Shown here piece after piece: positions 3,163 through 63,662 of a stretch of DNA of 64,000 bases. The translations under genes were made by a program, and so were the position numbers. The notes beneath the pieces were generated by a model that had not been told where the DNA came from, did no database searches, and was given only the letters and a program-made list of their open reading frames with translations. Source of the DNA: Picochlorum sp. SENEW3 (lineage: Eukaryota); the NCBI GenBank assembly GCA_034226945.1, contig CP120460.1:620001-684000 (forward strand). The letters are read 5' to 3'. Position 1 is the first letter of the stretch; each line of letters opens with the position of its first letter.

Positions 3163-6100
3163 TCATGACTGTTGGGGCATTTTTTCTTTTGACTTCAAAG
3201 GAGCAGCCCATTTCCATCCAGGCAAAGTCTCCAGCAGACGAACCTTTTCATCAATGAGCTTGTTTTTCCTTTTATCTTTCCGTTGGTCGCTTATCCATTG
3301 CCCGAATCCCTTGGAATCTGTAGAAGGGTACACACCATCAGCATCGTCAAGTTCCTTCTTGTACTTGTCAAAATTTTCACGCCATCGAAGAGATATTTCA
3401 TTCAAATGACCTTCCCATTTCCATCCAGGTAAAGTCTCCAGCAAATCGATCCGTTCAGCAGAGAGACTTTTTTTCTTTTTAGCTTTCCGCTGTATGTCTA
3501 TCCATCGTCCGAATCCTTGGGACAATGGATTTGATGAATGAAGTGGAGGATATACACCATCAGCATCTTCAAGTTCCTTCTTGTACTTGTGGAACTTTTC
3601 ACGCCACACGTCATCAGACAAATGATCTTCCCATTTCCATCCAGGCAAAGTCTCCAACAAGTCGATCCGTTCAGCAGAGAGATTCTTTTGCTTTTTAGCA
3701 GTCCGTTGCGCGCTTATCCATTGTCCGAATCCCTTGGAATCTGTAGAAGGATACACACCATCAGCATCTTCAAGTTCCTTCTTGTACTTGTCGAAATTTT
3801 CACGCCACACGTCATCAGGCAAAGGAGCAGCCCATTTCCATCCGGGTAGAGTCTCCAGCAGACGAACCTTTAGAGCAGAGAGATTGTTTGTCCTTTTATA
3901 TGTCCGCTGATTGGCTATCCACGTTCCAAATCCCTTGGATTTTGTAGAAGGGTATACACCCTTTGCATCTTCGAGTTCCTTCTTGTACTTGTGGAATTTC
4001 TCAAGCCATCCAGGAGACGCCTCATTCAAAGGACCTTCCCATTTCCAGCCAGATAAAGTCTCCAGCAAATCAATCCGTTCAGCAGAGAGTTCGTTTTTAT
4101 TTTTAGCAACCCGTTGTGCGTTTATCCATTTTCCGAATCCTAGAGAATGTAGATTAGGGTACACACCATCAGCATCTTCAAGTTCCTTCTTGTATCTGTC
4201 GAAATTTTGACGCCACACGTCGCCAGCCACAGGACCTTCCCATCTCCATCCGGGTAGAGTCTCCAGCAGTCGAACCTTTTCATCAATGAGCTTGTTTTTC
4301 CTTTTATCTTTCCGTTGGTCGCTTATCCATTGCCCGAATCCCTTGGAATCTGTAGAAGGGTACACACCATCAGCATCTTCAAGTTCCTTCTTGTACTTGT
4401 CGAAATTTTCACGCCACCGAAGAGATATTTCATTCAAAGGACCTTCCCACTTCCATCCAGGCAAAGTCTCCAGCAAGTAAATCCGTTCAGCAGAGAGACT
4501 ATTTTGCTTTTTAGCAGTCCGCTGTGTGCCTATCCATCGTCCAAATCCTTGGGACAATGGATTTGATGGACTAAGTACAGGGTATACACCATCAGCATCT
4601 TCAAGTTCCTTCTTGTACTTGTCGAAATTTTCACGCCACACGTCATCAGGCAAAGGAGCAGCCCATTGCCATCCAGGCAAAGTCTCCAGCAAATCAATCC
4701 GTTCATCAGAGAGATCGTTTTGCTTTTTAGCAGTCCGTTGCGCGCTTATCCATTGTCCGAATCGTGGAGATTGTAGATTAGGGTATACACCATCGGCATC
4801 TTCAAGTTCCTTCTTGTACTTGTCGAAATTTTTAAGCCACTTGGTAGGGTCTACAGATGTGATGCCCTTCACTGCAGCCCTGCATTCGTACCATCTCTCC
4901 TGAGCGCCATCGATGCCCGATCCTGTTATTAGGTGCTTTAGCATAGCAATTGATGTGATATCTGGGTGAATATATTCCTGTACCTTACGTAACAGGTTTT
5001 CTGGCCCAACACATTCTATCGTTTCTCGGACGCCTTTAGCATTATGTCTTTCGAAGTCAAAAATCCTCTCTATAACAACATCCCCGTAATAGATTGGTTT
5101 GAAATCGGTTCTTGGCCAGCGTCGCACCTCGCATCTAATGAGATTATGTAACACCTCTGCCAGTTCTTGCAAAGCAATTTGACCAGATGAGCCATGATAA
5201 ATGTCCACCAAGGCATTTATCAGACCACGCCAACCTTCAAAGAAAAGATAAAACATACAATGAGTATATATGTGCTACAGTGCGAACGAATTCTCACACG
5301 CGTCATACACCGACACCTACCAGTCACATCTTTGACGTGCTCTCCTTTCATTGAAATCCGCATTCTGTTTGAGGACCTATAGGAGGTCATTGGAACGAAG
5401 GCATATGTGATATCTCTGATATTTCCGTTACTGAGAAACATGCACAGGCTTTGCCGCAGGGAGGGCTGGTCAACCAAAGCGCCTAAAATGTGCAAGTCTT
5501 CGATCAGGGAGCCTGCAGACCAAAATGTCTCCACAGTGTGGGCTAACTTGTCAAACCCAAGACAAATGCCACCCTCGCCAGAACAATAATGGACCTTATA
5601 CACCAAACGAGACCTGAAGTTGTTTGTGTGCTGCACTTTATCGGATAAGCGGATATGATTTGAGTACATATCAGTAACTTTTCCGACTCCTGGAGAAAAC
5701 ATCGAGACCAGTGTGTCGATAGAAAGCACTTTGATCCTGCACGCCGTGGCATCTTTTTTAAATTCATCCTTACTAAAGTGGTCCTTTACCAATCTCGCCG
5801 CCTCTTGTCGGGTTCGGCCTTTGATTGACTCAAAAGTGTCACTGTCAGGCTTGTTCAGAACACTGACCATTGTTTCCACACCGTTTCCTCTTATTGCATT
5901 TTCCCGCATAGTCACCTCCTCTACAAAATTGGGATCGAATGGACACTGCACATGATCGTGGACAATAATGTTGTACTCATTTGCCTCCTCATCATACTGG
6001 ACATATGGTGCTTCGCTCTGTCCTGACATGGTGTCCCCTACAAGTTTGTGCAGCTTGGTGCCCTGGTGTGATGGGTATCGAAAAGTCCTACCATTTCCAC

Positions 6101-8189
6101 TAAAACATAAATCTTTCACATTGGATATGTCCCAGTAACCATACTCTCCATTTGAACACATTTTTCTCAGACATTTCAAGTTAGGATTATAAGAGAGGCC
6201 TTCTATGGGTACAAGTGGTGTTGTGAGTATCTTCCCGTTTTGACATGCCTTTGAAAGGTCGTCTATAGAATATTTAACCGATCGTTCCTTGCAAGTGATC
6301 CAGTCATCATGATTGTTTCCAATATCTTGTTCGATTGAGTCTCTTGAGGTCTTATTGGAGAGTTCACAAGACGGTACAAACCTGCTAGATAGAGATGAGA
6401 ATCTCGTTTGGTTCCTGGCTTGCTCAGATGAATTCGCGAATCTCAATGAAAAGATATCATTGCATCTCATGTCTCTAGTAATGTGATCGACTGAGATTCT
6501 GTCATCAGCCCACAATCGACGCAATTCAGTACTTGTCATCTCATGCTTAACCATCATCACGACCTTGTGGATATCGATACGGATAGAATAGCATTCTTCA
6601 TCTTCCGTACTGAGCAATCGTCCACATGCTACCTGAGAATCAGAGGACGGAATCCTGTTCACAAAACGAGCCCTCCTCGAACCAATCAACATTCTGCCAG
6701 AAGCCATTGTAAACAATTGTGGATTTGAGCCATCCAATTGCGTCGCTACAGACTCCCGCGTAACACCACAGAAAAAGTCCTCAACGACTTCTAAAGATGT
6801 TCCGTGATCATTCCTGATCCAGCAGCACACATGCGAAGACCACAAGGACAATCTCAATTCATCAGTTGTCCAATGAATCTGCGAAGATGACAGAAGGGGA
6901 GCAAGCACTGTTTCCAAGCGACACACCATACATATGCGTGAATCTTCGTCGTTGTATTCTACAAACGTTGAAGTCTCTAGGTTATCTGCGAGTTTTTTTT
7001 CCAAATGATCAGCCATTGATCTATTGAATGCCTGTTCTGCTCTATCCATTCGAAGCAATCTCCAGTTGCCTTTCATAAATTGCTCAAAATATCTTCTCAG
7101 CTCTATTGGACCAGCATCAATTGCTTTTTTCAAATCATTCTTTCTCTCCCCTGTGATCATGCATTCGAATTCTTTGAGGAGCAACACCAGTAACATCTCA
7201 GCAGTTGAAAACTCATTAGGGACTGCGGTCTCTCTAAATTGCGTCTCCTGTGGCGATTCGCGACAATACTCGAAAATTTGATGGCCATCTGCATACTTGG
7301 TCTGCATATCTGCATTTTCGTCGAGTATTTGGTACACATCACTCGAAGAAATTGCTGGACGATCACGCAGAACTCCCCTGACATTGTCCAAACATTCCTC
7401 TATTGGAGCCTCAACTTTCATCATAACATAATCCCGATACCTTGAGATCTCTTCCACCCTGGCCTCATAATACGCCTTGCTAAATACACAGAGTCGGTTC
7501 TCGGGCGATTCTGATTCGCTGTCATCATGGGCAGCAACAGATGGGGACACAGGGAATCGATCCAAATTCTTTATTGGCTGCTTTTTGTTGGAATTCTTTC
7601 GTATCTGATCACTGTATTGTTGCCACCTGCTTTGATAAGCGTGAAGTATCAAACCATGTACTAGATCGACGAAGCAACGCATATATCATACCTGTCTCTT
7701 TTGCTTCCAATCAGGCTATCTGTCTTGCAGATGACTCTCCCATCTGCACAAACACGGATTACATAGAAACATCACTTTTTCGTATTTTTTTCTACAACAC
7801 TTGCAGATTAATAAGAGACACGCACCTTCCTCGTCAGGGATATACGGGCAAACTGTTGCATATGAACCTTCTTGTTGACTACATCCTGAAGCATTAACTA
7901 GAGGGCTATTGACATCATCTGTCCTGGAATTTGGACTCAATTCTTGGACCACTGGCACATTGGAATTGATATTTTTGTCCAAGAGTACATCATCTGTCGG
8001 CACAGAAGACCTCAAACGCTTTCTCGGAGAATCCTCCTTCTCCTCTTGTATTGTTGGCACATGTGAAGTGGAACTTGGATCACGATTCTCATCGTTGCGA
8101 TGCTCTGAACGAGAAGTCCCCGCATCAGCCCTAGGAAAAAAGGCCTTGATTTTCATGCATCCTCTGGATGCCCTTTTTGTCCAACGCAT
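3163..8189 (-). CDS. ~1,597-aa protein: disordered N-terminus, two HNH-endonuclease-like motifs, a NUMOD1-like motif and 8 tandem helicase-associated (HA) repeats. Exons 8189-7826, 7743-7692, 7626-5321, 5234-3163
   Basis: Three GT-AG introns (7825-7744, 7691-7627, 5320-5235) all preserve frame; the exons sum to 4794 nt. HNH1 is IHKVV...SVDHITRDMRCNDIFSLRFANSSEQARNQ. HNH2 is LHKLV...HDH...NFVEEVTMRENAIRG. HA consensus W..NF..YK......G.YP....FG.WI..QR......LS.ERI.LLE.LPGW.W. Confidence 0.8.
3208..4839 (-). repeat. Coding tandem repeat array of 8 HA units (201-222 nt / 67-74 aa per unit including linker)
   Basis: DNA cores such as caccatcagcatcttcaagttccttcttgtacttgt and ccatccaggcaaagtctccagca recur with few changes; units 3 and 8 are near-identical. 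Confidence 0.95.
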
Positions 8190-9130
8190 TCAGGCAATCT
8201 GCAAGATACATACATACATGAAACTACCATCATTACATCTGGAGAGGATATCATATCTCAAAGCATCCTATCGCACCTTACGCGTTAGATGTCTTATGGA
8301 AATCCCTATGAAAAACCCAATCCGCTCTTGAGAGGCGCCACTCAACCACTCACTTGCAAAAGAGACAAGCGTCTGTTGCAACAGGATGCTCTTCCTTTTT
8401 TTCCCTTTCTCAATCGCTGCGCACATGTTTATGTGTTTGATATAAGAATTTTTCTAAAACAAAGCATGATTCAGCCACTGGAGGGAATATATACGGTATT
8501 CAACCAGACTCACCTGCAATTCAAGCAAACTCAACCTTGAGCTGCTTGCTGATTGACTGCTCTTCTTTCCACCAAGTTTGGAGGTTTTATTATCTGAAAA
8601 CGATTCTTTTCATTGTATATCAGTACAACTGAGAGGGTGGATCTTGATCAACTCGAAATCGGAATCAGACAGACATGTAATTGAACACAATAAAAATCAT
8701 GACCCATGGCCTGTCTGCCGGTGTGCCTGTCTGCCTCTCTGCCCATGTCAGACCACTCTCTCATCGTCGCCCTGCTCTGACGTGGTAACGATGAAGGTTC
8801 TTATCAACAAAAGAAATTATTGATCAAACATTTCCCGGCACGAAACCATCTTCAGCGAGGTTTGTCCTTAGCCTCTCGCTGGGTGTGGAGGGTACCCAAA
8901 GCAACCATTAACACTGATACACGGGCAAACTGTCGAACCTGATGGATGCATATGCAGAAATATTAATAAAAATATCCATCATACATCGACAGGAGGCTAT
9001 AATCTCTCAACAAGACGCTTCTCAGCACCCCAAGAATCACCCGACACCGCATCTTTCGCGGCAGATCCTTGTGAATAGAATATCACAGACAGCACTGACA
9101 TGATACGTTCTACGAAATAAAAGTGCATCA

Positions 9131-9217
9131 TGGGGTCCTTTTCTCTCCTTGCCTCGTGAGTCAGAGGTCTGTACGAGACAGAGAGGAAGGGAGAGACGAG
9201 GAGAGAAAAGGACCCCA
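9131..9217. repeat. Perfect 19-bp inverted repeat with a 49-nt spacer (hairpin or miniature element)
   Basis: tggggtccttttctctcct (9131-9149) is the exact reverse complement of aggagagaaaaggacccca (9199-9217). Confidence 0.9.
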
Positions 9218-9611
9218 GAAAGAATTACACTCGAGCGAAGCAGTTACAGAAAAAAATAATAAATCAGTCCAGAATTGAAATAAGTTCAAGAGTGCATGAA
9301 ATATAAAATCCAGCGTTGATTCTTCATACCTAGAGAAGACATATCATCTGTCACCACAACATGTGGCCCACAAGATCCTGCTGCTATGGTGCATCGTCAC
9401 TACACGATACACAGATGGATTCCAGTAAATGTAGACAGCTGTACCTTCGGGTAAATCTCTCAAAGCATTCGCATAACCTCGCAAACACACTTCCCTGACA
9501 CGCATCATCACCTGCCGTTCTCATGATCACACACATGTACTCTTTCCAATCACTCACTGTGCTTCTTCTTATCACATCTTCTCAGAAATCATGCATATGC
9601 GATCATCAAGA

Positions 9612-10634
9612 TTATAGGGAACGATTTGCATCGTTGTCGAGGAAAGAGAGGTCTATCCCATGAAATGGATCAGAAGTCTGCATGAGAAGGTCATCACCCT
9701 CGTTGTTGGAGAACCAGTCGCTTGCAGAAGTCACATTCTGCAACAAGATCTCATCCAGAAGGCCATCAAATTTTAATGGTGAACCTTGGAGTAGATCCCC
9801 TTCGCAAGACTGTGGCAAAGGCTCATTGAAGCCTTGTGCTAATGTGTCACCATCTGCCCCACTTCTTGGCTGCACAGCGCGCGCAGCAACACGCCCTGCG
9901 TTATCATTATCTGGTGATCTTTGGCGCTTACCATTGCCATTCGATGGCGATGGGTACTCTCGAGGATTGATAGCCCTTTCCTGGCGCTCAGATGAAGTAG
10001 ATGTCAGAATAGATGCATTCATCAGCGAGATCTGCGATTCCCTAAGTTGCTTGGCATCCTTCCCCTTAATTTTCCTGGAGAGGCTTCTGTTCGTCGAGCT
10101 TAACAGCGCCTTCCAGTTCTGATTCCGTGCGAGATCACTATGGCTACCATTGCACCGGATATATGTACAAAGAAGGACACGGATGCATACTGCTGCAGTT
10201 CGTGTCAAATCTCCGAATCTATTCAGCTGCATTGACGCCTCAAAAACCATGGAGAGCTCCGTTTTGGCTTCTGTATCTATGGAGGAGGATTTCTCCAATG
10301 AAGGTTTGAAATCATTAGTCGACACTATAAAAAACCTATGTGCTGTGCTGCTTCCTTTACTGTCTTCTGGATAGACGATAAGACTTGTATCACCCATGAG
10401 ACATTTCACTATTCTTTTGAATTGTTTATATACACTTTCTGCTGAAAATTCTTCGGGAAAAGTGATTTCACAGTGGACAAATGGCAGTTGTCCACCTTCC
10501 AGAAGACTGAACCTGTTGCAGGTGTGATGAAGTCCACATCGAACCTCGATCGTTCTATTCGTCTCATGTTCATAATAAATCTCATGGAGTTTGGTTCTGA
10601 GACCTTCCTGGAATTCGTCGCTAAAGTAGGCCAT
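9612..10634 (-). CDS. Orphan protein (~340 aa) with a KRQR basic patch and an acidic/hydrophobic C-terminal tail
   Basis: Long uninterrupted ORF with an ATG at 10634 (MAYFSDEF); no family recognised. Confidence 0.55.
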   Translation of the reverse strand: MAYFSDEFQEGLRTKLHEIYYEHETNRTIEVRCGLHHTCNRFSLLEGGQLPFVHCEITFPEEFSAESVYKQFKRIVKCLMGDTSLIVYPEDSKGSSTAHRFFIVSTNDFKPSLEKSSSIDTEAKTELSMVFEASMQLNRFGDLTRTAAVCIRVLLCTYIRCNGSHSDLARNQNWKALLSSTNRSLSRKIKGKDAKQLRESQISLMNASILTSTSSERQERAINPREYPSPSNGNGKRQRSPDNDNAGRVAARAVQPRSGADGDTLAQGFNEPLPQSCEGDLLQGSPLKFDGLLDEILLQNVTSASDWFSNNEGDDLLMQTSDPFHGIDLSFLDNDANRSL

Positions 10635-11235
10635 GGTTCGTTCGTTTGGCAAAAGATGCAGAATTCTGGGAAACGGTTGCAGTGCTCTATACTACAATCT
10701 TCCTGTGCACCATCTGCATATTGACACAATGATGAATCATTTTGTATGCGTCGAAGAGGCCGGGACGTGTTTGTCGTGACAACTATGTCCAGCAAATTCA
10801 AATTTCACGTCTCTCCCAATTTTGGAGAGTTTAAACTCTGACAAACAATGAAACCATTCGCTATACACGATAATGACTTGTATCTCCAATAATATACACA
10901 TATATGTCATATATGTGATACTGATGACATAGAATAGCACGTACAAGAATTTCGGTTGAAAGTTGACACCCGTCGCGTTTGACTACTCTGCTCTCGATAT
11001 CCTGCTCTACTCTAAGTGAGAAGAATAGATAGCCAGTACCTAAACAGAGATAGAATTATTGTTATTAGTGATACTATGAACTGGGAGAGTAATATGATGA
11101 TGATGTTTGCTGTTGCGAATTGAACGCATCGCAATCATGTGTCCGGACAGAGGACCCTCTCTAATTAGAGATATTTGGTATAAAACAAAGCGCGCTCGAA
11201 ATTGAAATTTCAAATTGAGACCAATTTGGCGGGCG

Positions 11236-29083: not shown

Positions 29084-30717
29084 ATGGCTACGGATACATC
29101 TCCAGTGGTGGTAAATCCACTCTTACCAGAGTGTCTTGAAGGTCATTTGACACTAGAGGATTTTAATGCGGACGATGCGGTGGAGTTTAGGCCAGATGAC
29201 TTTTCGTATTACAAGGGTGTCCTGACAAGTATAGTGCCAGGCATTGTGCTGGGATGCTTGGCTGCTATTGCTATGATTGGAGTGATTATTTGGGTATGTT
29301 GACTATTTGATTGGCATATCACGAGAGGGATTGTGGTTTCGATGGTGTTTTTTTTGTGTCTGTGTAGACAAGTGTCTCCTTTTGTCGTTGCTGTTGCACA
29401 ACCAGAAGGAAACGGACTGACCGCCTTCCAGAGGATACGATAGAAGATCAATTCATCACAGCTGATAGGACAAAAGAAAATGCGTATCAAGTTGATGCGC
29501 ATTTCGGATTGCCGAAAACACTCACTTGGTCTGAGAAGTATAAAGTGGAAAAGATTTTGAACTGGAGTATTGTGCTGTTCATGCTTGCCACTGTTGGTGT
29601 CGCCTCTTGGGGGATATATTCCTCAATCGATCATACAAATGGTGTTGTAGGTGAATTTTGGAACGTTTTCGATCTGGTTGAAAACGTGGCCATCTCTGTG
29701 AGTAATATTTTGACACAGTTGACTGGGCTAATTGACGAGGTGGAACCAGCTCTAGAGACTGTGATGAAAAACGAAGATCTCCTATTATCTGCCGCGAATA
29801 ATGATCAACTATTGGGGCTTGAAAGCTTGATAACCAATAGTCTCAATGAATTAGGAAATGTGAAGGGAATTCTGTATGATTTAAAAGAGCCTGTTCGAAC
29901 TGCTCAAGAGGTTGCCAATGAAACATTTGTGCAGGGCCTGCAAGGGTTCCGTGACAGTTTCGAATCTCCCACGATGGCATTTCAAACGACTGGAAGATTT
30001 ATAGCTATAGCAGTTTTATTTGGGATGGTAATTTTGTTTTCAATGGTGTCTGCGGGGTTTGTTGTGTGGGGATCATATCCCAGAGTGGGTGCCACGGCTG
30101 TCATCATCCTGTGGCTTTTTGTCGCACTGCTCATGTTCCTCGGGGTAGGCTTGTTGAAAGGAGTCAACTATGTGGCGGAGGACGGTTGTTTATATACTGA
30201 GACGTTCGTTGTGAACTATGCTGGTGATTATATTGGTGATCCTTTGGCTAAAAAATTTGCACTACGAGCGATAGATTACTATGTGAATCCCATACCTCCA
30301 ACAGAGTACGTAGTTGGAGAGGCTGCCAGCAAGATTGTAGACCCAAGGGCAGGGGATTTACTGAATTTATATGACACAAGTGGGCTGGAAGACCTATTAC
30401 TGCAGTTGCCAACGTTGACGAATCTCCCCGTCGTGTCCTCTGTGCTCTCTGCAGATCTCAAGTCATCATTGTCTTCTCTTGCTTCTGCAGCGCCTGAAGC
30501 ACTGGACTCGATAAAAGAAATTGATAGGATAGGATCTAGAACCAATATTTACGATTTATATTCAGCAATCAAGGCGTATATTTGCTGTGCTCTGTCATCC
30601 GATTTGTCAGGCCTGTTTGATGCATGGGTGGCCACTGGATGTTTGTCTCTTGTTTTGGCAACCCTGTGCACCTGGAGGCTCATTTGGTTCGTTCGCAAAA
30701 AATACAAGTATGTGTAA
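29084..30717 (+). CDS. Multi-pass membrane protein, tweety/prominin-like topology; intron 29294-29367
   Basis: About 5 TM segments, a Cys cluster after TM1 (FCRCCC) and two large helical loops. The family call is tentative. Confidence 0.65.
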
Positions 30718-46713: not shown

Positions 46714-48519
46714 TCAGTACTGTCTTTGAGATGTTGAGAACAAGAGCTGTTTTGTGCCCTTTTTCTTCCGAGAGCCAGGCTTTGAAATCTCTGGCAAAGG
46801 TGGGTCAGTTTGTAGCCGCTCTGTCGATGCACCACTACTTATTGACACCCACGCCGGTGCATGTCCAAGCGGCGGTGATGTTGATGGCATTTCTTCACCA
46901 CTCCCTCCCAGTGATGGGCCTGTTGCAGCAAAACCAAGCTCTGCAATCTTTGCATAATTGATGCCTGGTTGTCCGGCATCAGTGTTTGTATCATCGCCAA
47001 AGATGTGATGAGCCTGATCATCGTCATCAGAGCCACCAGTAAGACGAGGCATATCCTCAATACGAAAGGGCAGTCGCTCTGATTCAACAGTCTTCTTCCT
47101 CCTATCCCGTTTCTCAAGTCTTGCTCGCTGCTTTTCTGCCAGAATCCTCTTCTCTTTCCTCTTTAATAATTCATCCTGAAACTCCACCATAATATCTGCA
47201 GGTATGATATCCGAGAGATCCACTTCACACAAGTAAAATGTGGCACTGACAGGGATATGTGAAAAAACTCTCAACCTCTTTTGCATTTGCTCAGTCTGGG
47301 TATACCTCTCCACCTCAAGTACATGTGCCTGAATGCTTTTAGGCAACTCCTGATACCCTTCTTTCCATCGATGTAATATTTTCATGTTCAATGTGTTCAA
47401 AAATATCCATTGTCCATCAGACTTTTGGTAGAGATACACCATCTCATCATCATCTCTGGGCATATCCTGTGACAACAGATGGTCAGGCACTGAACAACGC
47501 ACAATCACATTCGTTGTCTTCTTTTCATTCATTTTGGAATCTCTCTTTCTACTGCTACTCTCTATATGTGATACATGAAGGCTGGGAAACTCCTCATCCA
47601 AATGCTTCATCCTCTGGCGATCCTCCTCTGCCTGTTGCGATGCTTTCATTGTCTCTGCAACACACTGTTCCAATGCCTCTATCCATCCCATTTCATGCGA
47701 TGTTCTCTCACACATTATTCTGCAATGACCCATCACGACTTGTATCGACGCGAGATGTCCTGGGAGGAGGTATTCGGCTTCCTGTCCACCTTCCAACCGA
47801 ACACACTCTGACATCTCAGCTAATCTACGAACGATATACAACCATAAATCCAAGGGATTCTCTACAACCATTGTTCTACAGAATCTAGGCATTGATACAG
47901 GATAGCATCCTGTGTCCACCGCATCACACGAGTGAACAGGCATCACCTCTGAAGAATTCCGTCGCCTCCCCACCAACCAAAATGATTCAACTGCCCCCTT
48001 CCCATCTAGACCGGCCTCCTTATCCACCACCCGGATCTGAATCGGACGAATCTCCTTCATACTCATGTCAACACCACACAAAGGACATGGGCTGGTGCCC
48101 CTCATCACATCATCATACTCTCGTGATGTTGCACAGAGCATATGGGTCACGACAGACACCAAACTAAACACATGGCCACATGGCGTGATATACGGCAGCT
48201 CTACTTCTTCTAAACTAATAGGACAATGCGGCATTGTGCTCGCCGTCATTTCTAGAATAATCACATCCTCCCATTCCAACAATCCACCATTTTCTTCTTG
48301 AGCAGTATTGCTGCTGTTGACAAGCACCCCGAAGCGATAATTTGCTCGGAGAAACGACCCTCGATCGAACCCTTGGCTGGACTTTTGTCTTCGAGAATAC
48401 CCATAATTCTGCTGTCGCCGTTCTCGTCGCTTTCCTGACTGCGTCACAGTCATTCCCTGCAACAAATGATTCGCTGCTCTCGTCGTTTGGCTCCTGCGAG
48501 AGCTGCTCGCGGAATCCAT
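46714..48519 (-). CDS. RING finger protein RNF10/MAG2-like
   Basis: ANHLL, FLRANYRF, CPISL...ITPCGHVF...CPLC, YQKSDGQWIFL, SHIP...CEVDL. Confidence 0.82.
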   Translation of the reverse strand: MDSASSSRRSQTTRAANHLLQGMTVTQSGKRRERRQQNYGYSRRQKSSQGFDRGSFLRANYRFGVLVNSSNTAQEENGGLLEWEDVIILEMTASTMPHCPISLEEVELPYITPCGHVFSLVSVVTHMLCATSREYDDVMRGTSPCPLCGVDMSMKEIRPIQIRVVDKEAGLDGKGAVESFWLVGRRRNSSEVMPVHSCDAVDTGCYPVSMPRFCRTMVVENPLDLWLYIVRRLAEMSECVRLEGGQEAEYLLPGHLASIQVVMGHCRIMCERTSHEMGWIEALEQCVAETMKASQQAEEDRQRMKHLDEEFPSLHVSHIESSSRKRDSKMNEKKTTNVIVRCSVPDHLLSQDMPRDDDEMVYLYQKSDGQWIFLNTLNMKILHRWKEGYQELPKSIQAHVLEVERYTQTEQMQKRLRVFSHIPVSATFYLCEVDLSDIIPADIMVEFQDELLKRKEKRILAEKQRARLEKRDRRKKTVESERLPFRIEDMPRLTGGSDDDDQAHHIFGDDTNTDAGQPGINYAKIAELGFAATGPSLGGSGEEMPSTSPPLGHAPAWVSISSGASTERLQTDPPLPEISKPGSRKKKGTKQLLFSTSQRQY

Positions 48520-48922
48520 ACCATTAATATACTTGTGTACTACTAATAGTAAATGTTTATTACATTCTGTGATTCAAAGAGGGGTATGCTCACACAATTT
48601 CTCTTCTTTCTGAATTGGGCTGAAGGAGGATCAAGCCAGACTTTCTCTCTCGTCTTGCAAGAATTGGTCACCAGTGTACTTCAAATGAGCCACTGGAGTG
48701 AAACGATTACGATCGAGACTGTAGATCGGCCTCTATGTACATCAGTGTATGATACTATGATACTCTTGACCTGATGATGAATCTCATACACATTGACAAT
48801 TGCAAAGAACTGTTCATTCAAATTTATTTTCAGGTGACACAAAAAAGAACACAAGTATCTCTCATTATCACTCTTCCTCATCATGAGGACTCACGCATAA
48901 TCTTTTAGAAAGAAAGAGTCAA

Positions 48923-51184: not shown

Positions 51185-52414
51185 TTAGCTCTTTTTAGAA
51201 GCAGCAGCAGGAATGAGTTGGAAAAGACCATTAAAAGGAGCCACTTTTCTAAAATACTTCCAAGAGACCCTCTTGTTTGATAAATCTTCTATGTTGATTG
51301 TCAGATATGCTCTCTTACCATCCTTCTTTCTCTTATGTGATACCAGATACACATTTTCACAGTCTACTTGTGAACAACGCAATTCCCTTGGAATGATTCT
51401 CATGGTGTCCGTCTTGGTCCCCAAACGAGGTTTGCCTCGTTTGCTCCCTGCCAGGTATGAATACTTTGATCGTCTCTTCACCCCAAAGAACGTCATGGGT
51501 GTCCCAGAAACAGCATCCTCACGTATCTTCCATAGTTTCCTAGAATTTGAAACCTTGTGAATCCACCAGCTCGACGTCACAATAATCTCCTTTTCCTTAG
51601 ACTTGAGAGAATGTGTCAAATAGTACTCGACACGACGGTAATCACTGGCTCTTCTCGAATTTATATGTATTTTGTAATACCCTCGCGTGAATGTACACTT
51701 TGGAGGTGGAGGAATTGGTCCAGAAACAATCCTAGGTGGATATTGCTGCCCCCAAGTATCTGTATCGTTGCTGCATGAGGAAGACAGGAGAATATTTCCC
51801 TTTGGAACGTCTGCCTCAAGATCGTCTTCCTCAGCACATGCAATCATTCTCGCCAGAGCAAACGTGCGAATGCCGTTTCGAAGAGCTTCAGTGACATCAA
51901 TTTGTAAAGGCTCGCCACCTTCCGCGTTTATGAGTTCTGAATGACGAATTTGAATCGTTCCAATTTTGGCACCATTGTCCTCCTGTATCACATTGTCAGA
52001 ACAACTCAGCATCCAGTTTACAAATGGGTCAAAAGGCTTTAGTATATCCCCTGATGTATTCCACGACACGCTTTCTGTATCATTAAGAACTGAAGTAAAA
52101 CCATATACAGTTATATTCTGCGGAGGGAAATCCTTGGAATCTGGCCTCGCAAAGACTTGCAACACAGCAGGCTTTGAGAGCGATGATACTGAAGATGGTT
52201 CAAAGGACAGCAGCACAACGGAGGGCTCTCCATTCTTCCTATCCATGGAAACCATAAAATCCTCCGCACACATGTTTGTCTGTGATGGGGTCACTGCGAC
52301 AGCCACAGCAGCGAGTGATTCTTGCTGATCCGGACCAAGCGGGCATGGCGAAAGAGCCTGGACCCCAACAAGAGACACAGACAGCAGTGCATAATAAAAT
52401 CTATTCAACGTCAT
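51185..52414 (-). CDS. Secreted protein with an acidic beta-rich N-domain (DNRLRE/CBM96-like, tentative), a PPPP linker and a basic C-domain
   Basis: Signal peptide; LLSF...AVLQVF...VYG...VSWN...IDVT pattern. Confidence 0.65.
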   Translation of the reverse strand: MTLNRFYYALLSVSLVGVQALSPCPLGPDQQESLAAVAVAVTPSQTNMCAEDFMVSMDRKNGEPSVVLLSFEPSSVSSLSKPAVLQVFARPDSKDFPPQNITVYGFTSVLNDTESVSWNTSGDILKPFDPFVNWMLSCSDNVIQEDNGAKIGTIQIRHSELINAEGGEPLQIDVTEALRNGIRTFALARMIACAEEDDLEADVPKGNILLSSSCSNDTDTWGQQYPPRIVSGPIPPPPKCTFTRGYYKIHINSRRASDYRRVEYYLTHSLKSKEKEIIVTSSWWIHKVSNSRKLWKIREDAVSGTPMTFFGVKRRSKYSYLAGSKRGKPRLGTKTDTMRIIPRELRCSQVDCENVYLVSHKRKKDGKRAYLTINIEDLSNKRVSWKYFRKVAPFNGLFQLIPAAASKKS

Positions 52415-53225
52415 ACTCTTTACTTAGAAAACAACAGGATATGTATAAATAGAGCAGTACTAGACCTTTTTCTATATATAGAGAGTATAGAAAAGGTTCG
52501 GATCTCGAGAAGAAGCTACACCGTTGTCAGTTGACGTCACTGCGCGTCTTTTCTCTGTTTCTCCCTCCTCGCATTCGGCTACACAGATATACCTACGTAT
52601 TAACAAGGCATAAAGATGCAAAATTTTGTATGTATTCGTTGAGAGCACACTAAGTCCACATCTAAATGTACCTGTCACCACAGCGGTACACGTGGACAGC
52701 ATGGCCCACGAGTCTACCAAGAATCTTGGACCAAGGTGTCACACATGCATCTGGCTCGGATGATTCGAGTGCATTCAAATTCTACTGGGCCACATCGTGA
52801 GTGGAATCCATGTAATCCTACCACTGTCGTATACATGCGCCAAGGATTCGAGCCAGCCATCACAGGAATCAGCCAGTGCTGGTTATATATATCCTGATGG
52901 GTGCATGAGAGAGAAATTTCTGCCAGCATACCTCGAAGGGTCAGGAAGCTGATGCCGTATTTTTCAATCGCATGATGCTTTTATACTTCCAATTACCTGT
53001 TCCGGGTGTGTCTACATTGCTGTCATCGGCTGAATATAGACCCTGAGATATATATTAATATCAGGGCAAGTTCTATTGCCCTAACAATTGCTAGTTGCAA
53101 TTAGGGCAACCGTTTCATTGATGGCGAATCAATGAAATGGCAGGGCATCACTCACCGTGACGTCAGTTTCCATCGACTGCAAATTTAATTATATTCATTT
53201 ACATCGCTCATTGTAGTGGGACGCT

Positions 53226-61014: not shown

Positions 61015-63662
61015 ATGAGTGAGGAAGAGGAGGGATATGATTCTGCGCCAGAGTTGTCAGAGTCCTTGGCAGGTCTTGTGGGAGCCTTTGACAGGTTTAA
61101 ACAAACTATGGGGTATTCTGAGGATTCTGAGGATGCAGCGATGGCACAGATACAAAGTTTTGTCAATGATGTTCAGCAGGAGAATATCACTTTACGGAAG
61201 CATGCCGAAGATGCCATCATGGTATGTGGTTTTTATTTTTTTCTCTGATACATGTGCTGTGTGTATATGAATATTGAGTATATCCCTGTGGCTTTGTGCA
61301 GATGGCTCAACGATATAAGGAAGCAAACGAGGATCTTGAAAAAGAGAATACATCTCTATATGATCAGTTGACACAGGCCAAAATGAGTGATATGGTGTCA
61401 AGTACACAGTCTCTGGCGACAGTGGCATATGAATTTGACAAGGAGGTGGTGATGACAAAGCTAGCTCAGGCAGAAGAGATGATGGCATATGGTGCAGAAA
61501 TGCAGGAGCGAATACACGAATTAGAGGAAGAGAATGATGCATTGAAACAGACCTTGCATGAGATACGGGAGGATCAGAAGCAAATGCATGCTCTCAGAGA
61601 CATGGATTCGCCAGCAGTAGTTGGGGTTGGTGAATCTGATATGCCCATGTATGGCTCTCCAGAATCAGAGAAAGAATCGGTGGCGAGTGAGGGGCGAGGG
61701 GACGTCGATGGTGCTACTCCTGAATCAACTCCAGTGCGAGACCAGAGCAACATGTCTGAGAGTAGTTCATATGCCACCCCATTGAACAGCACGAAAAAGG
61801 ACGATCCTATCGCCATTGCAGATGCCCTGGCCGCAGTAGCAGCAGGTTCGGAGTCTGGAATGGCTGCCTCTGCATCTAAAATGCTCCGCGGGTATCACTC
61901 CATGCAAGCAGAGTTGGAGGAGGTCAAGGCTAAGAATGTCGAGTTGTCAAAAGAAGTTGAGGAGCTGACGGAAACAATGACATCGAAACAATTCAAGGCA
62001 CCGTCTGCTTGGGCAGAAAGGGAAGTGAAATATAAACTGGAAAAGAAGGAATGGGAAGAGGAGGTTGAAGATAAAAATGCCAAGATTAGAGCTCTCGAGT
62101 CGGAGAATGAAATGCTGCGATCTGAGAAAGGCACTGATGATTTGAATAAAAAGATTGTGGAGTTGGAGTCAGAGATTGTGGTCCTGCGAAACAAATATGA
62201 AGATGCGAAAGCATCTCTTCATGACATGCAGGTATCTTCTCTTGTAAGTGCTGGAGAGTTTAGCATGTCTGGAGTAAAGCCTGTCGCCCATGAAGATGAC
62301 GTCCGCTCAATGGTGGATAAGATTGAGAGTGAATCAGAATCCCATGAAGCATCCTCAAGTAGACAAAAAGATACAGTAGATGGACATGCGATGCAGGAAG
62401 AATTGGATAAGGTTCAAAGAGAAAAGGAAGAGATTATCAGTAAAATTAGCCAAGCAGAGGAGGCAGACGCTACCAATGTGCTTCTGGCAGAGGCTCAGAT
62501 TGCCTTGCTTGAGAGTGGCGTTGACATGGAAGACACTGCTAAAATTGTGGAATTGGAAGAGAAATTACATCAGAAAGATATCAATGCCGAGGAAGTTCAG
62601 GAGCAGACACAATCAGTGGTCCCAATGCTACAGAAAGCACTGGCAGCACCATCACCCGGAGTATTGCCATCATTAAAAATTGCCGAGTATGTTGACAGTA
62701 CCAATCCACCAGATCCTGCTACTGATTCTGCTAAACCAGAACTCGAGGAGCATGTCAAGGAAAGAATTGCCGATTTGAAACTGCAAATACATGTCGGCAA
62801 GGACGAACAAGGCAGTCCTGCAATGCCTGCCAGTGCTGCAGCAGGAATGGCTGCAGTAAATCGCGCACAAACTGCCGATATTCAGCAACTCAAGTCCCAG
62901 TTACAAGAAGCTGCGGAACGCGAAGAAGAATTGCAGCGCAGAATAGAACAAATCAAGGTGAGGCCAGTGAATCTCCGTCTCTCCCAAGCAAGCACACTCT
63001 CCTCAAGCAGTCCTCACACGGCCAAACTTGTATCTGAACGGAAAGATGCTGATAAAGCATGGGAAGAGCACCAGAAAAAATCTGATGTCACATCACTTCT
63101 CCGTGAAAAAGCAGAGCTGGAGGCCAAACATGACATGGCAAAGTCTCAAGTGTCAAAGCTGAAGGATGCATTGGAGGCGGCAAACCAAGAGAAACAGGCC
63201 CTTCAGAAAGCAGTCAAGCATGCCTTGGCAACAGGTGACATGGCTACTCTATCAACAGCGCAAGAGAACTATGCAAAGAAGAAAAAGGCTACCTCTCCCT
63301 TGAAAAAGCTCAGAGGCCGTGGGATATTCTCCCGCAAATCAGGAAGCAGACCAAGCTCTGCCCAGGATGAAGCCCCACCCACAGAAGCAGAAAATCTTCG
63401 CCTTAGACCTGTGCCAGCACCCACAGATCTTCCCTCACCGAGCGATTCAATGCTGGACCATGAAGACCCTGCCATCACCAAGCACATACATGCCTTGGAG
63501 GAGGAGAATGAAATGCTCATGGATCAACTCGTGACAACAAAAGTACGCCTCGCAGAAGTCGAAGGCGACTGTCTAGAAAGCAGACGTGCACTCCTCCGTG
63601 CCAAGGAGAAGCAAATGGATCTTGCACGCCAGCTCCATGACAAACGCGTTTCACATTCGTGA
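61015..63662 (+). CDS. Large coiled-coil protein of unknown function; intron 61222-61301
   Basis: Phase-0 GT-AG join (AIM|MAQR); E/K-rich heptad segments. Confidence 0.75.

Follow-up and report, generated by a model that had tools for sequence, protein, structure and literature searches.

A diverged HNH_3-like module joined to a helicase-associated repeat array in a four-exon gene of the green alga Picochlorum

What might a nuclear gene do that joins a nuclease module of the phage type to a long array of repeats otherwise met behind helicases? This question is raised by a locus on the minus strand (3163-8189) of a 64-kb stretch of contig CP120460.1 (positions 620,001 to 684,000; hereafter the window) from Picochlorum sp. 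SENEW3, a trebouxiophyte green alga. Nearly all HNH_3 endonucleases known to us come from phages, bacteria and giant viruses, and helicase-associated (HA) repeats are uncharacterized, putatively DNA-binding units known mainly as helicase tails. An initial annotation, made from the sequence alone, had proposed a hidden four-exon gene whose product fuses tandem HNH_3 motifs to eight HA units and might act in a selfish homing-type element or an antiviral nuclease. Our analysis leads us to regard the locus, on balance, as probably a resident nuclear gene for a modular protein of ~1,590 amino acids (aa), in which the HA array would hold DNA and an HNH_3 module would nick or cut nearby in an I-HmuI-like manner.

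We examined the gene structure first. The locus contains three minus-strand open reading frames (ORFs; 7716-8189, 5220-7685 and 3163-5274), which the initial annotation had joined through three canonical introns. The junction strings are present at the proposed sites, and joining 8189-7826, 7743-7692, 7626-5321 and 5234-3163 yields a coding sequence of 4,794 nt with 1,597 codons and a single, terminal stop. All three introns (82, 65 and 86 nt) run from GT to AG, and none has a length divisible by three. The exons and introns are as follows.

7826..8189, minus strand: exon 1, encoding an N-terminus rich in Ser, Asp, Arg and Pro that carries a basic patch, RKR(L)R
7744..7825, minus strand: intron 1, 82 nt, GTGCGT...TGCAG; the same junction is present in the public models of P0006 and P0001 (see below)
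7692..7743, minus strand: exon 2, a 52-nt micro-exon
7627..7691, minus strand: intron 2, 65 nt, GTATGA...AGCAG, based on gene models only
5321..7626, minus strand: exon 3, a 768-aa conserved core common to P0001-P0004
5235..5320, minus strand: intron 3, 86 nt, GTAGGT...TGAAG, splitting a Gly codon (G|GT)
3163..5234, minus strand: exon 4, a ~130-aa linker kept in distant relatives, followed by the HA array; the stop codon is at 3163-3165

From Met12 onward, the spliced translation is letter for letter the 1,586-aa protein P0006, which NCBI lists as 'hypothetical protein PSENEW3_00004814 [Picochlorum sp. SENEW3]' with PF03457 precomputed. The four-exon structure therefore agrees with the public model, and the gene is not a hidden one, having already been annotated as a hypothetical protein. 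The two models differ at the start: the exon 1 ATG at 8189 comes straight after an in-frame TGA, and the public model begins at the second ATG, at 8156. The public annotation of SENEW3 was produced by MAKER2 with ab initio predictors, expressed sequence tags and proteins of other Picochlorum species, according to an excerpt of PMC11092101; PSENEW3_00004814 is thus a pipeline gene model, not transcript proof. Its locus tag has no entry in the supplements of PMC12198440 and PMC11092101, a coverage that did not extend to the large tables of the genome paper.

The family to which this protein belongs is very small. Among 1.84 billion cluster representatives we found only four true relatives, P0001-P0004. 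P0001, from Picochlorum sp. BPE23, is 68-70% identical and has the same architecture, with five HA units (residues 1019-1388). P0002-P0004, from metagenome assemblies, are 25-32% identical, measure 1,078-1,205 aa and have no HA units; they end instead in a Lys/Asn-rich tail of ~450 aa that matches no Pfam family and is unrelated to the HA array. A fifth match, to a cytochrome-c repeat protein, was discarded as spurious. A set of 5.8 billion proteins held only two Picochlorum proteins of this family, a word-indexed search with residues 280-620 found none among proteins of 422-1,344 aa, and no relatives were found in IMG/VR viral contigs or in GTDB prokaryote genomes. We also rejected the only locus found in the JGI metagenomes (L009) as a chance match of 62 residues, off-frame on a high-GC bacterial contig, and dropped the idea that P0002-P0004 come from giant viruses, as IMG/VR held no relatives. 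Judged by these searches, the fusion protein appears to be a single lineage-restricted hypothetical protein.

Since a core of ~870 aa is common to all members and is followed either by the HA array or by the unrelated tail, the C-terminal module is evidently exchangeable. The conserved unit is accordingly this core, comprising a domain without an assigned fold, the HNH_3 module, a second block and the linker. Within the genus, where SENEW3 and BPE23 are close strains according to a passage of PMC12458973, conservation is uneven: 79 of 80 residues are identical over positions 1-80, 26 of 40 over 81-120 and all 80 over 121-200, and identity is mostly 45-80% after ~205. The sharp boundary of the near-identical 5′ part (window positions 7230-8156) looks like the trace of recombination, gene conversion or a constraint at the DNA level.

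These relatives allowed us to assess the splice junctions. The Gly whose codon is split by intron 3 (P0006 G897), like the adjoining V895 and G900, does not vary among the five family members. The three HA-less metagenome relatives continue straight through junction 3 in the alignments, and their homology extends ~120 residues into exon 4 (H986, L998, R1015 and G1020). Together, these features provide independent comparative support for junction 3, the one linking the nuclease-like region with the HA units, and it is to this junction that the support from the alignments appears to be limited. For junctions 1 and 2 the only basis is the gene models of SENEW3 and BPE23; the 5′ part is so nearly identical between the two that conservation of frame there is uninformative.

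The protein consists, in order, of an N-terminus of low complexity that includes a basic patch, a conserved domain of ~200 aa, a diverged HNH_3 module, a second H...DH...EN block, a linker and eight three-helix HA units. Four of these parts were delimited as follows.

6726..7343, minus strand: conserved N-terminal domain with no assigned fold, spanning residues ~95-300 of exon 3, in which W/D/SH/EDF residues are invariant
6402..6584, minus strand: HNH_3-like module 1, IHKVV...VDHITRD...LRF...EQARNQ, with the DH dyad at P0006 D508/H509
5898..6050, minus strand: second block, H-x-x-V...HDHV...TMREN, P0006 H654...D685/H686...N704, for which HNH homology is not demonstrated
3166..4839, minus strand: tandem array of eight HA units (PF03457), each 67-74 aa long, 56-86% identical in pairs and with three predicted helices

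The evidence for module 1 comes from comparison with phage proteins. When phage genomes were searched by tblastn with an 86-aa segment of module 1, 48 records matched, all weakly (E 0.05-8 in the rows listed). Of the 25 rows listed, 18 fell on genes for HNH, homing or other endonucleases, three lay in unannotated records and four on hypothetical proteins. All eight matches that we fetched proved to be Pfam HNH_3 proteins (E 8e-9 to 1e-23), and hhalign aligned the family's module 1 sub-alignment with these eight at a probability of 96.9% (E 1.8e-10). Because these targets had been picked by their similarity to the query, we repeated the comparison with 20 other HNH_3 proteins, taken independently from five phage records by means of the Pfam model, and obtained the same register (probability 75.6%, E 2.4e-5). 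As controls, both scans included 101-aa windows from other parts of the protein, which scored 0.056-0.71, and reversed blocks, which scored 0.33-0.80. A hidden Markov model (HMM) of the 20 phage proteins gave 10.2 bits for P0006 and 8.0 for P0001 at module 1; none of 30 decoys, reversed or shuffled, exceeded -0.9. As a lead only, 17 of the 30 nearest clusters in the ESM Atlas belong to the HNH_3 set. The D508/H509 dyad and the downstream Asn N533 (H+24) are invariant in all five members. Taken together, these comparisons support the assignment of module 1 as a diverged HNH_3 module.

The second block has a different standing. Its residues H654, D685/H686 and T700-M701-x-x-N704 are likewise invariant in 5/5 family members, and it aligns in register with HNH_3 at the DH and EN positions; against module 1 itself, hhalign gave P 0.077. 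It may be a degenerate duplicate of the HNH_3 module. Thus, of the tandem HNH_3 pair proposed in the initial annotation, the first member is borne out by hhalign and by the HMM scores relative to decoys, and the second is recognizable at the level of motif, with profile scores near those of control windows. The initial annotation had expected a domain scan to return HNH_3 twice and HA eight times; Pfam found the eight HA units, and HNH_3 stayed below the cut-off.

In exon 4, eight stretches match Pfam HA, with a score of 190.8 bits (cut-off 28.4) and E 4.1e-57, and TRF returned 8.0 copies with a period of 201 nt, in agreement with the eight units first proposed. An AlphaFold2 (AF2) model of units 1-4 (pLDDT 75.7) has 12 helices, three per unit. 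Its top structural match in VIA was the Bacteroides vulgatus HA domain 2KTA (Z 6.6, root-mean-square deviation 4.2, 73 of 74 residues), the next row scoring Z 4.8; a Z below 8 counts as modest for helical models. 2KTA was also the sole match of the array among PDB sequences, a weak one at E 0.096. We disregarded the TPR, TALE and 14-3-3 rows of the Foldseek search with this model, as they lay at E>0.6 (TALE only at E>1). By sequence, the closest HA arrays belong to bacterial superfamily 2 (SF2) helicase-HA proteins (24-33% identity), and 4 of the 18 matches also carry Mrr-type nuclease domains (PF04471 and/or PF13156).

The variation among the units bears on how such an array might work. Differences occur in the loop that precedes helix 2, from helix 2 through helix 3, and in the linker between units, whose length also varies. 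Units 1 and 6, 2 and 7, and 3 and 8 are mutually closest, so that the variation tracks the history of duplication, and we saw no TALE-like one- or two-residue code among the eight units. Any guidance of the protein to its target by the repeats would thus be a conjecture. SENEW3 units resemble one another more than they resemble the five BPE23 units; the string YKKELEDADGVYP occurs in seven of the eight SENEW3 units, with one residue changed in the eighth, and BPE23 units 2-4 have YRDELEE(K/T)GWRYP. This homogenization within species, with a copy number of eight versus five, suggests concerted evolution or independent expansion. Within the array, at 4764-4783, one contig of sequencing run X3 differs by several substitutions and small indels, and this is probably another repeat unit aligned here or a polymorphism of the array.

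The rest of the protein yielded few clues to function. The conserved N-terminal domain had no Pfam, PDB or PHROG match. Searches with exon 3 or the family alignment gave 0 matches in the PDB and scattered single-member matches in PHROGs (E 0.006-2), none of them HNH. Searches of the family against PADLOC gave one weak AAA match, in P0003 (E 0.002), and those against NCBIfam gave low-complexity or spurious matches far under the cut-offs. Consistent with the initial annotation, which had seen neither Walker A nor DExH, a motif scan of the protein found no Walker A, its sole DExD-like string being DEED in the acidic N-terminus, and no helicase family of Pfam matched. The RKR(L)R patch of the N-terminus fits a nuclear protein, which we take as no more than a hint.

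The window is gene-dense eukaryotic nuclear DNA with a GC content of 42-48%, and its long ORFs encode, among others, a protein kinase, a PP2C, a CLASP/TOG protein, and exocyst-like and MON1-like proteins. Six further long ORFs (329-794 aa; 360-1349, 9612-10691, 29368-30717, 46714-48573, 51185-52423 and 61278-63662) match no Pfam family at E<=1e-5. The neighbors of the fusion gene include a sulfotransferase gene and other ordinary genes, and neither a tRNA nor an Rfam family was found in the 64 kb. Upstream of the gene, 8190-9611 is a 1.4-kb region with short ORFs only, in a genome reported to be ~74% coding. Within it, just beyond the 3′ end of ORF 9612-10691 (minus strand), lies a 25-nt inverted repeat (9131-9155 / 9193-9217, 92% complementary). 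The fusion gene is flanked by neither terminal nor direct repeats; it lies inside neither an intron nor an intein and itself carries spliceosomal introns. These introns, the lack of flanking repeats and the ordinary neighbors argue for a resident gene.

Given these observations, we propose that the HA array, perhaps together with the conserved regions that have no assigned fold, would anchor the protein on DNA, and that the HNH_3 module would then nick or cut nearby on the I-HmuI plan. If the second block were also a live center, the two could, speculatively, cut both strands. Such a protein would be expected to act in the nucleus, in genome maintenance or in defense against foreign DNA. DNA binding by HA was reported by the depositors of the solved domain 2KTA (Mills et al. 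2013), as cited in PMC12191111. His-Me finger nucleases, of which HNH_3 forms group 2, are described in a section of PMC5714182 as small, non-specific and reliant on appended DNA-binding modules for their targets.

Several results weigh against this proposal. Pfam HNH_3 gave no match on the whole of exon 3 at E<=10; for the isolated module 1 segment it was the top family, but at 13.3 bits against a cut-off of 24.8 (E 0.065). The phage HNH_3 HMM does not lift P0002-P0004 above decoys. Position H+21 of module 1, which we take to be that of the metal-ligand Asn in I-HmuI and T4 endonuclease VII, is Gln or Glu in all five aligned members, making catalytic activity uncertain; of the eight phage proteins confirmed as HNH_3, one (L003) likewise has Gln there. 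For the nuclease region, the AF2 model, built on a seven-sequence alignment, was unusable at pLDDT 45.7 and did not show the beta-beta-alpha-metal fold. The second block scored hhalign P 0.057 and 0.027 against HNH_3, compared with 0.078-0.71 for control windows; it had no HNH-annotated tblastn match and no support from Pfam, the phage HNH_3 HMM or the ESM Atlas. For the HA array, the AF2 model reached a pTM of 0.38, leaving the relative arrangement of the units undefined, and Foldseek found no PDB match at E<=0.001 and no analog at the level of the array.

Some of these points favor a domesticated, catalytically dead derivative, in which one or both blocks of HNH_3 origin, like the HA array, only bind DNA or act as a scaffold, for instance in a chromatin or transcription factor. 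We consider this rather unlikely. In every member, module 1 lacks the consensus HNH_3 Asn at H+21, and in the three distant ones it also deviates at structural Asn positions; it lies under the Pfam threshold, and the second block is not recognizable as HNH; moreover, the gene has introns and lacks the hallmarks of a mobile element. A parallel would be the plant AP2 DNA-binding domain, whose origin has been proposed to lie in HNH-AP2 homing endonucleases; PMC5714182 cites the papers on this origin and places ERF-type factors in the same HNH_3 group. On the other hand, the DH dyads and the Asn residues N533 and N704 are invariant across proteins of 21-24% overall identity, which retained chemistry explains more easily than binding alone, and the unusual Gln at H+21 has its counterpart in phage protein L003. 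In the most far-reaching reading, both His-Me centers, one canonical-like and one highly diverged, would be active and make a double-strand break, aimed by an HA array of fast turnover, so that the protein would serve as a restriction factor for self/non-self discrimination or against giant viruses. This we hold to be quite improbable; if it were true, the C-terminal swap between eight or five HA units and the ~450-aa tail would reflect re-targeting in an arms race.

A still-selfish gene, either a free-standing homing-type endonuclease or a recent viral acquisition that spreads within or between Picochlorum genomes, seems to us a shade less probable again. The tiny and patchy family (four relatives in 1.84 billion representatives and two Picochlorum proteins in the 5.8-billion set) would suit such an element, as would the sharp mosaic of identity with BPE23 (~100% over residues 1-80 and 121-200, mostly 45-80% elsewhere) and the different HA copy numbers (8 vs 5). 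HNH_3 enzymes are moreover typical homing endonucleases and numerous in chloroviruses (group 33 in a table of PMC5714182). Against this stand the three spliceosomal introns, the absence of flanking terminal or direct repeats and of a host intron or intein, the housekeeping neighbors in a window without tRNA or Rfam elements, and the absence of relatives from IMG/VR viral contigs and prokaryote genomes; on these grounds, we regard the homing-type element suggested in the initial annotation as improbable. Least probable of all is that the model is mis-joined or the locus non-functional, that is, two genes (one nuclease-like, one for the HA array) or an unexpressed relic. No RNA-backed sequencing run was found, the contigs aligned from four runs being DNA-like and without splice joints. 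Junctions 1 and 2 come from pipeline models alone (MAKER2, in the excerpt of PMC11092101), in a 5′ part whose near-identity with BPE23 deprives the frame of information. But the 4,794-nt frame is open once the three canonical introns are removed, the split-codon Gly and the linker residues of exon 4 are kept in relatives that read through junction 3, and the BPE23 protein has the same architecture. Thus, a resident gene for an HA-anchored nuclease of the I-HmuI kind remains the reading that we prefer.

A resident fusion of this kind would be of interest for several reasons. An HNH_3-HA fusion in an intron-bearing algal nuclear gene offers a simple system in which to ask what HA arrays recognize, and it would exemplify how a eukaryotic host protein can recruit a nuclease module of phage type. 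Were it active and open to targeting, the protein would also be a compact, modular nuclease scaffold. Our literature search found no published description of the HNH-HA architecture or of this gene, in keeping with the initial annotation, which had not recognized the architecture as described. The components, and the logic of a nuclease combined with a binding module, are already known; it is the combination of HNH_3 with HA that is rare.

How does the protein compare with known systems? In TALE-like arrays, near-identical repeats differ at a few specificity positions and form a regular superhelix; the HA units are 56-86% identical and vary at many positions, and the pTM of 0.38 leaves their arrangement undefined. 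The nearest structural counterpart of the units is the solved HA domain BVU_0683(627-691), PDB 2KTA, a lone domain taken from a putative helicase. Tandem HA units are also found at the C-terminus of SF2 helicases from bacteria and phages, some of which carry Mrr-type nuclease domains; the algal protein differs in that it has no helicase core, its nuclease-like module is of the HNH_3 type and not Mrr/PD-(D/E)xK, and its host is a eukaryote. Closer in plan are the fusions of a phospholipase D (PLD) nuclease to HA among END-like defense nucleases, in which, according to the section of PMC12191111 on these proteins, a nuclease is joined directly to HA as the presumed substrate-selecting DNA-binding part; as described there, they are bacterial, and PLD does not belong to the His-Me finger superfamily.

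The most instructive comparison is with the I-HmuI-type HNH_3 homing endonucleases (PF13392; PDB 1U3E). The algal protein differs from these in falling under the Pfam threshold, in having Gln or Glu at H+21, and in being ~10 times larger. It has an HA array instead of NUMOD, helix-turn-helix or AP2 modules, and carries in addition a second DH block and a further conserved domain on the N-terminal side. Its gene is nuclear, contains spliceosomal introns and lies outside any intron or intein. Nevertheless, the H-x-x-V...(V/I)DH(I)xRD...LR...N-Q pattern of module 1 is in register with that of phage HNH_3 proteins. The overall plan is also alike, in that a small nuclease is followed by separate C-terminal DNA-binding modules, as set out for the homing enzymes in a part of PMC5714182, a role that in the algal protein would fall to the putatively DNA-binding HA array.

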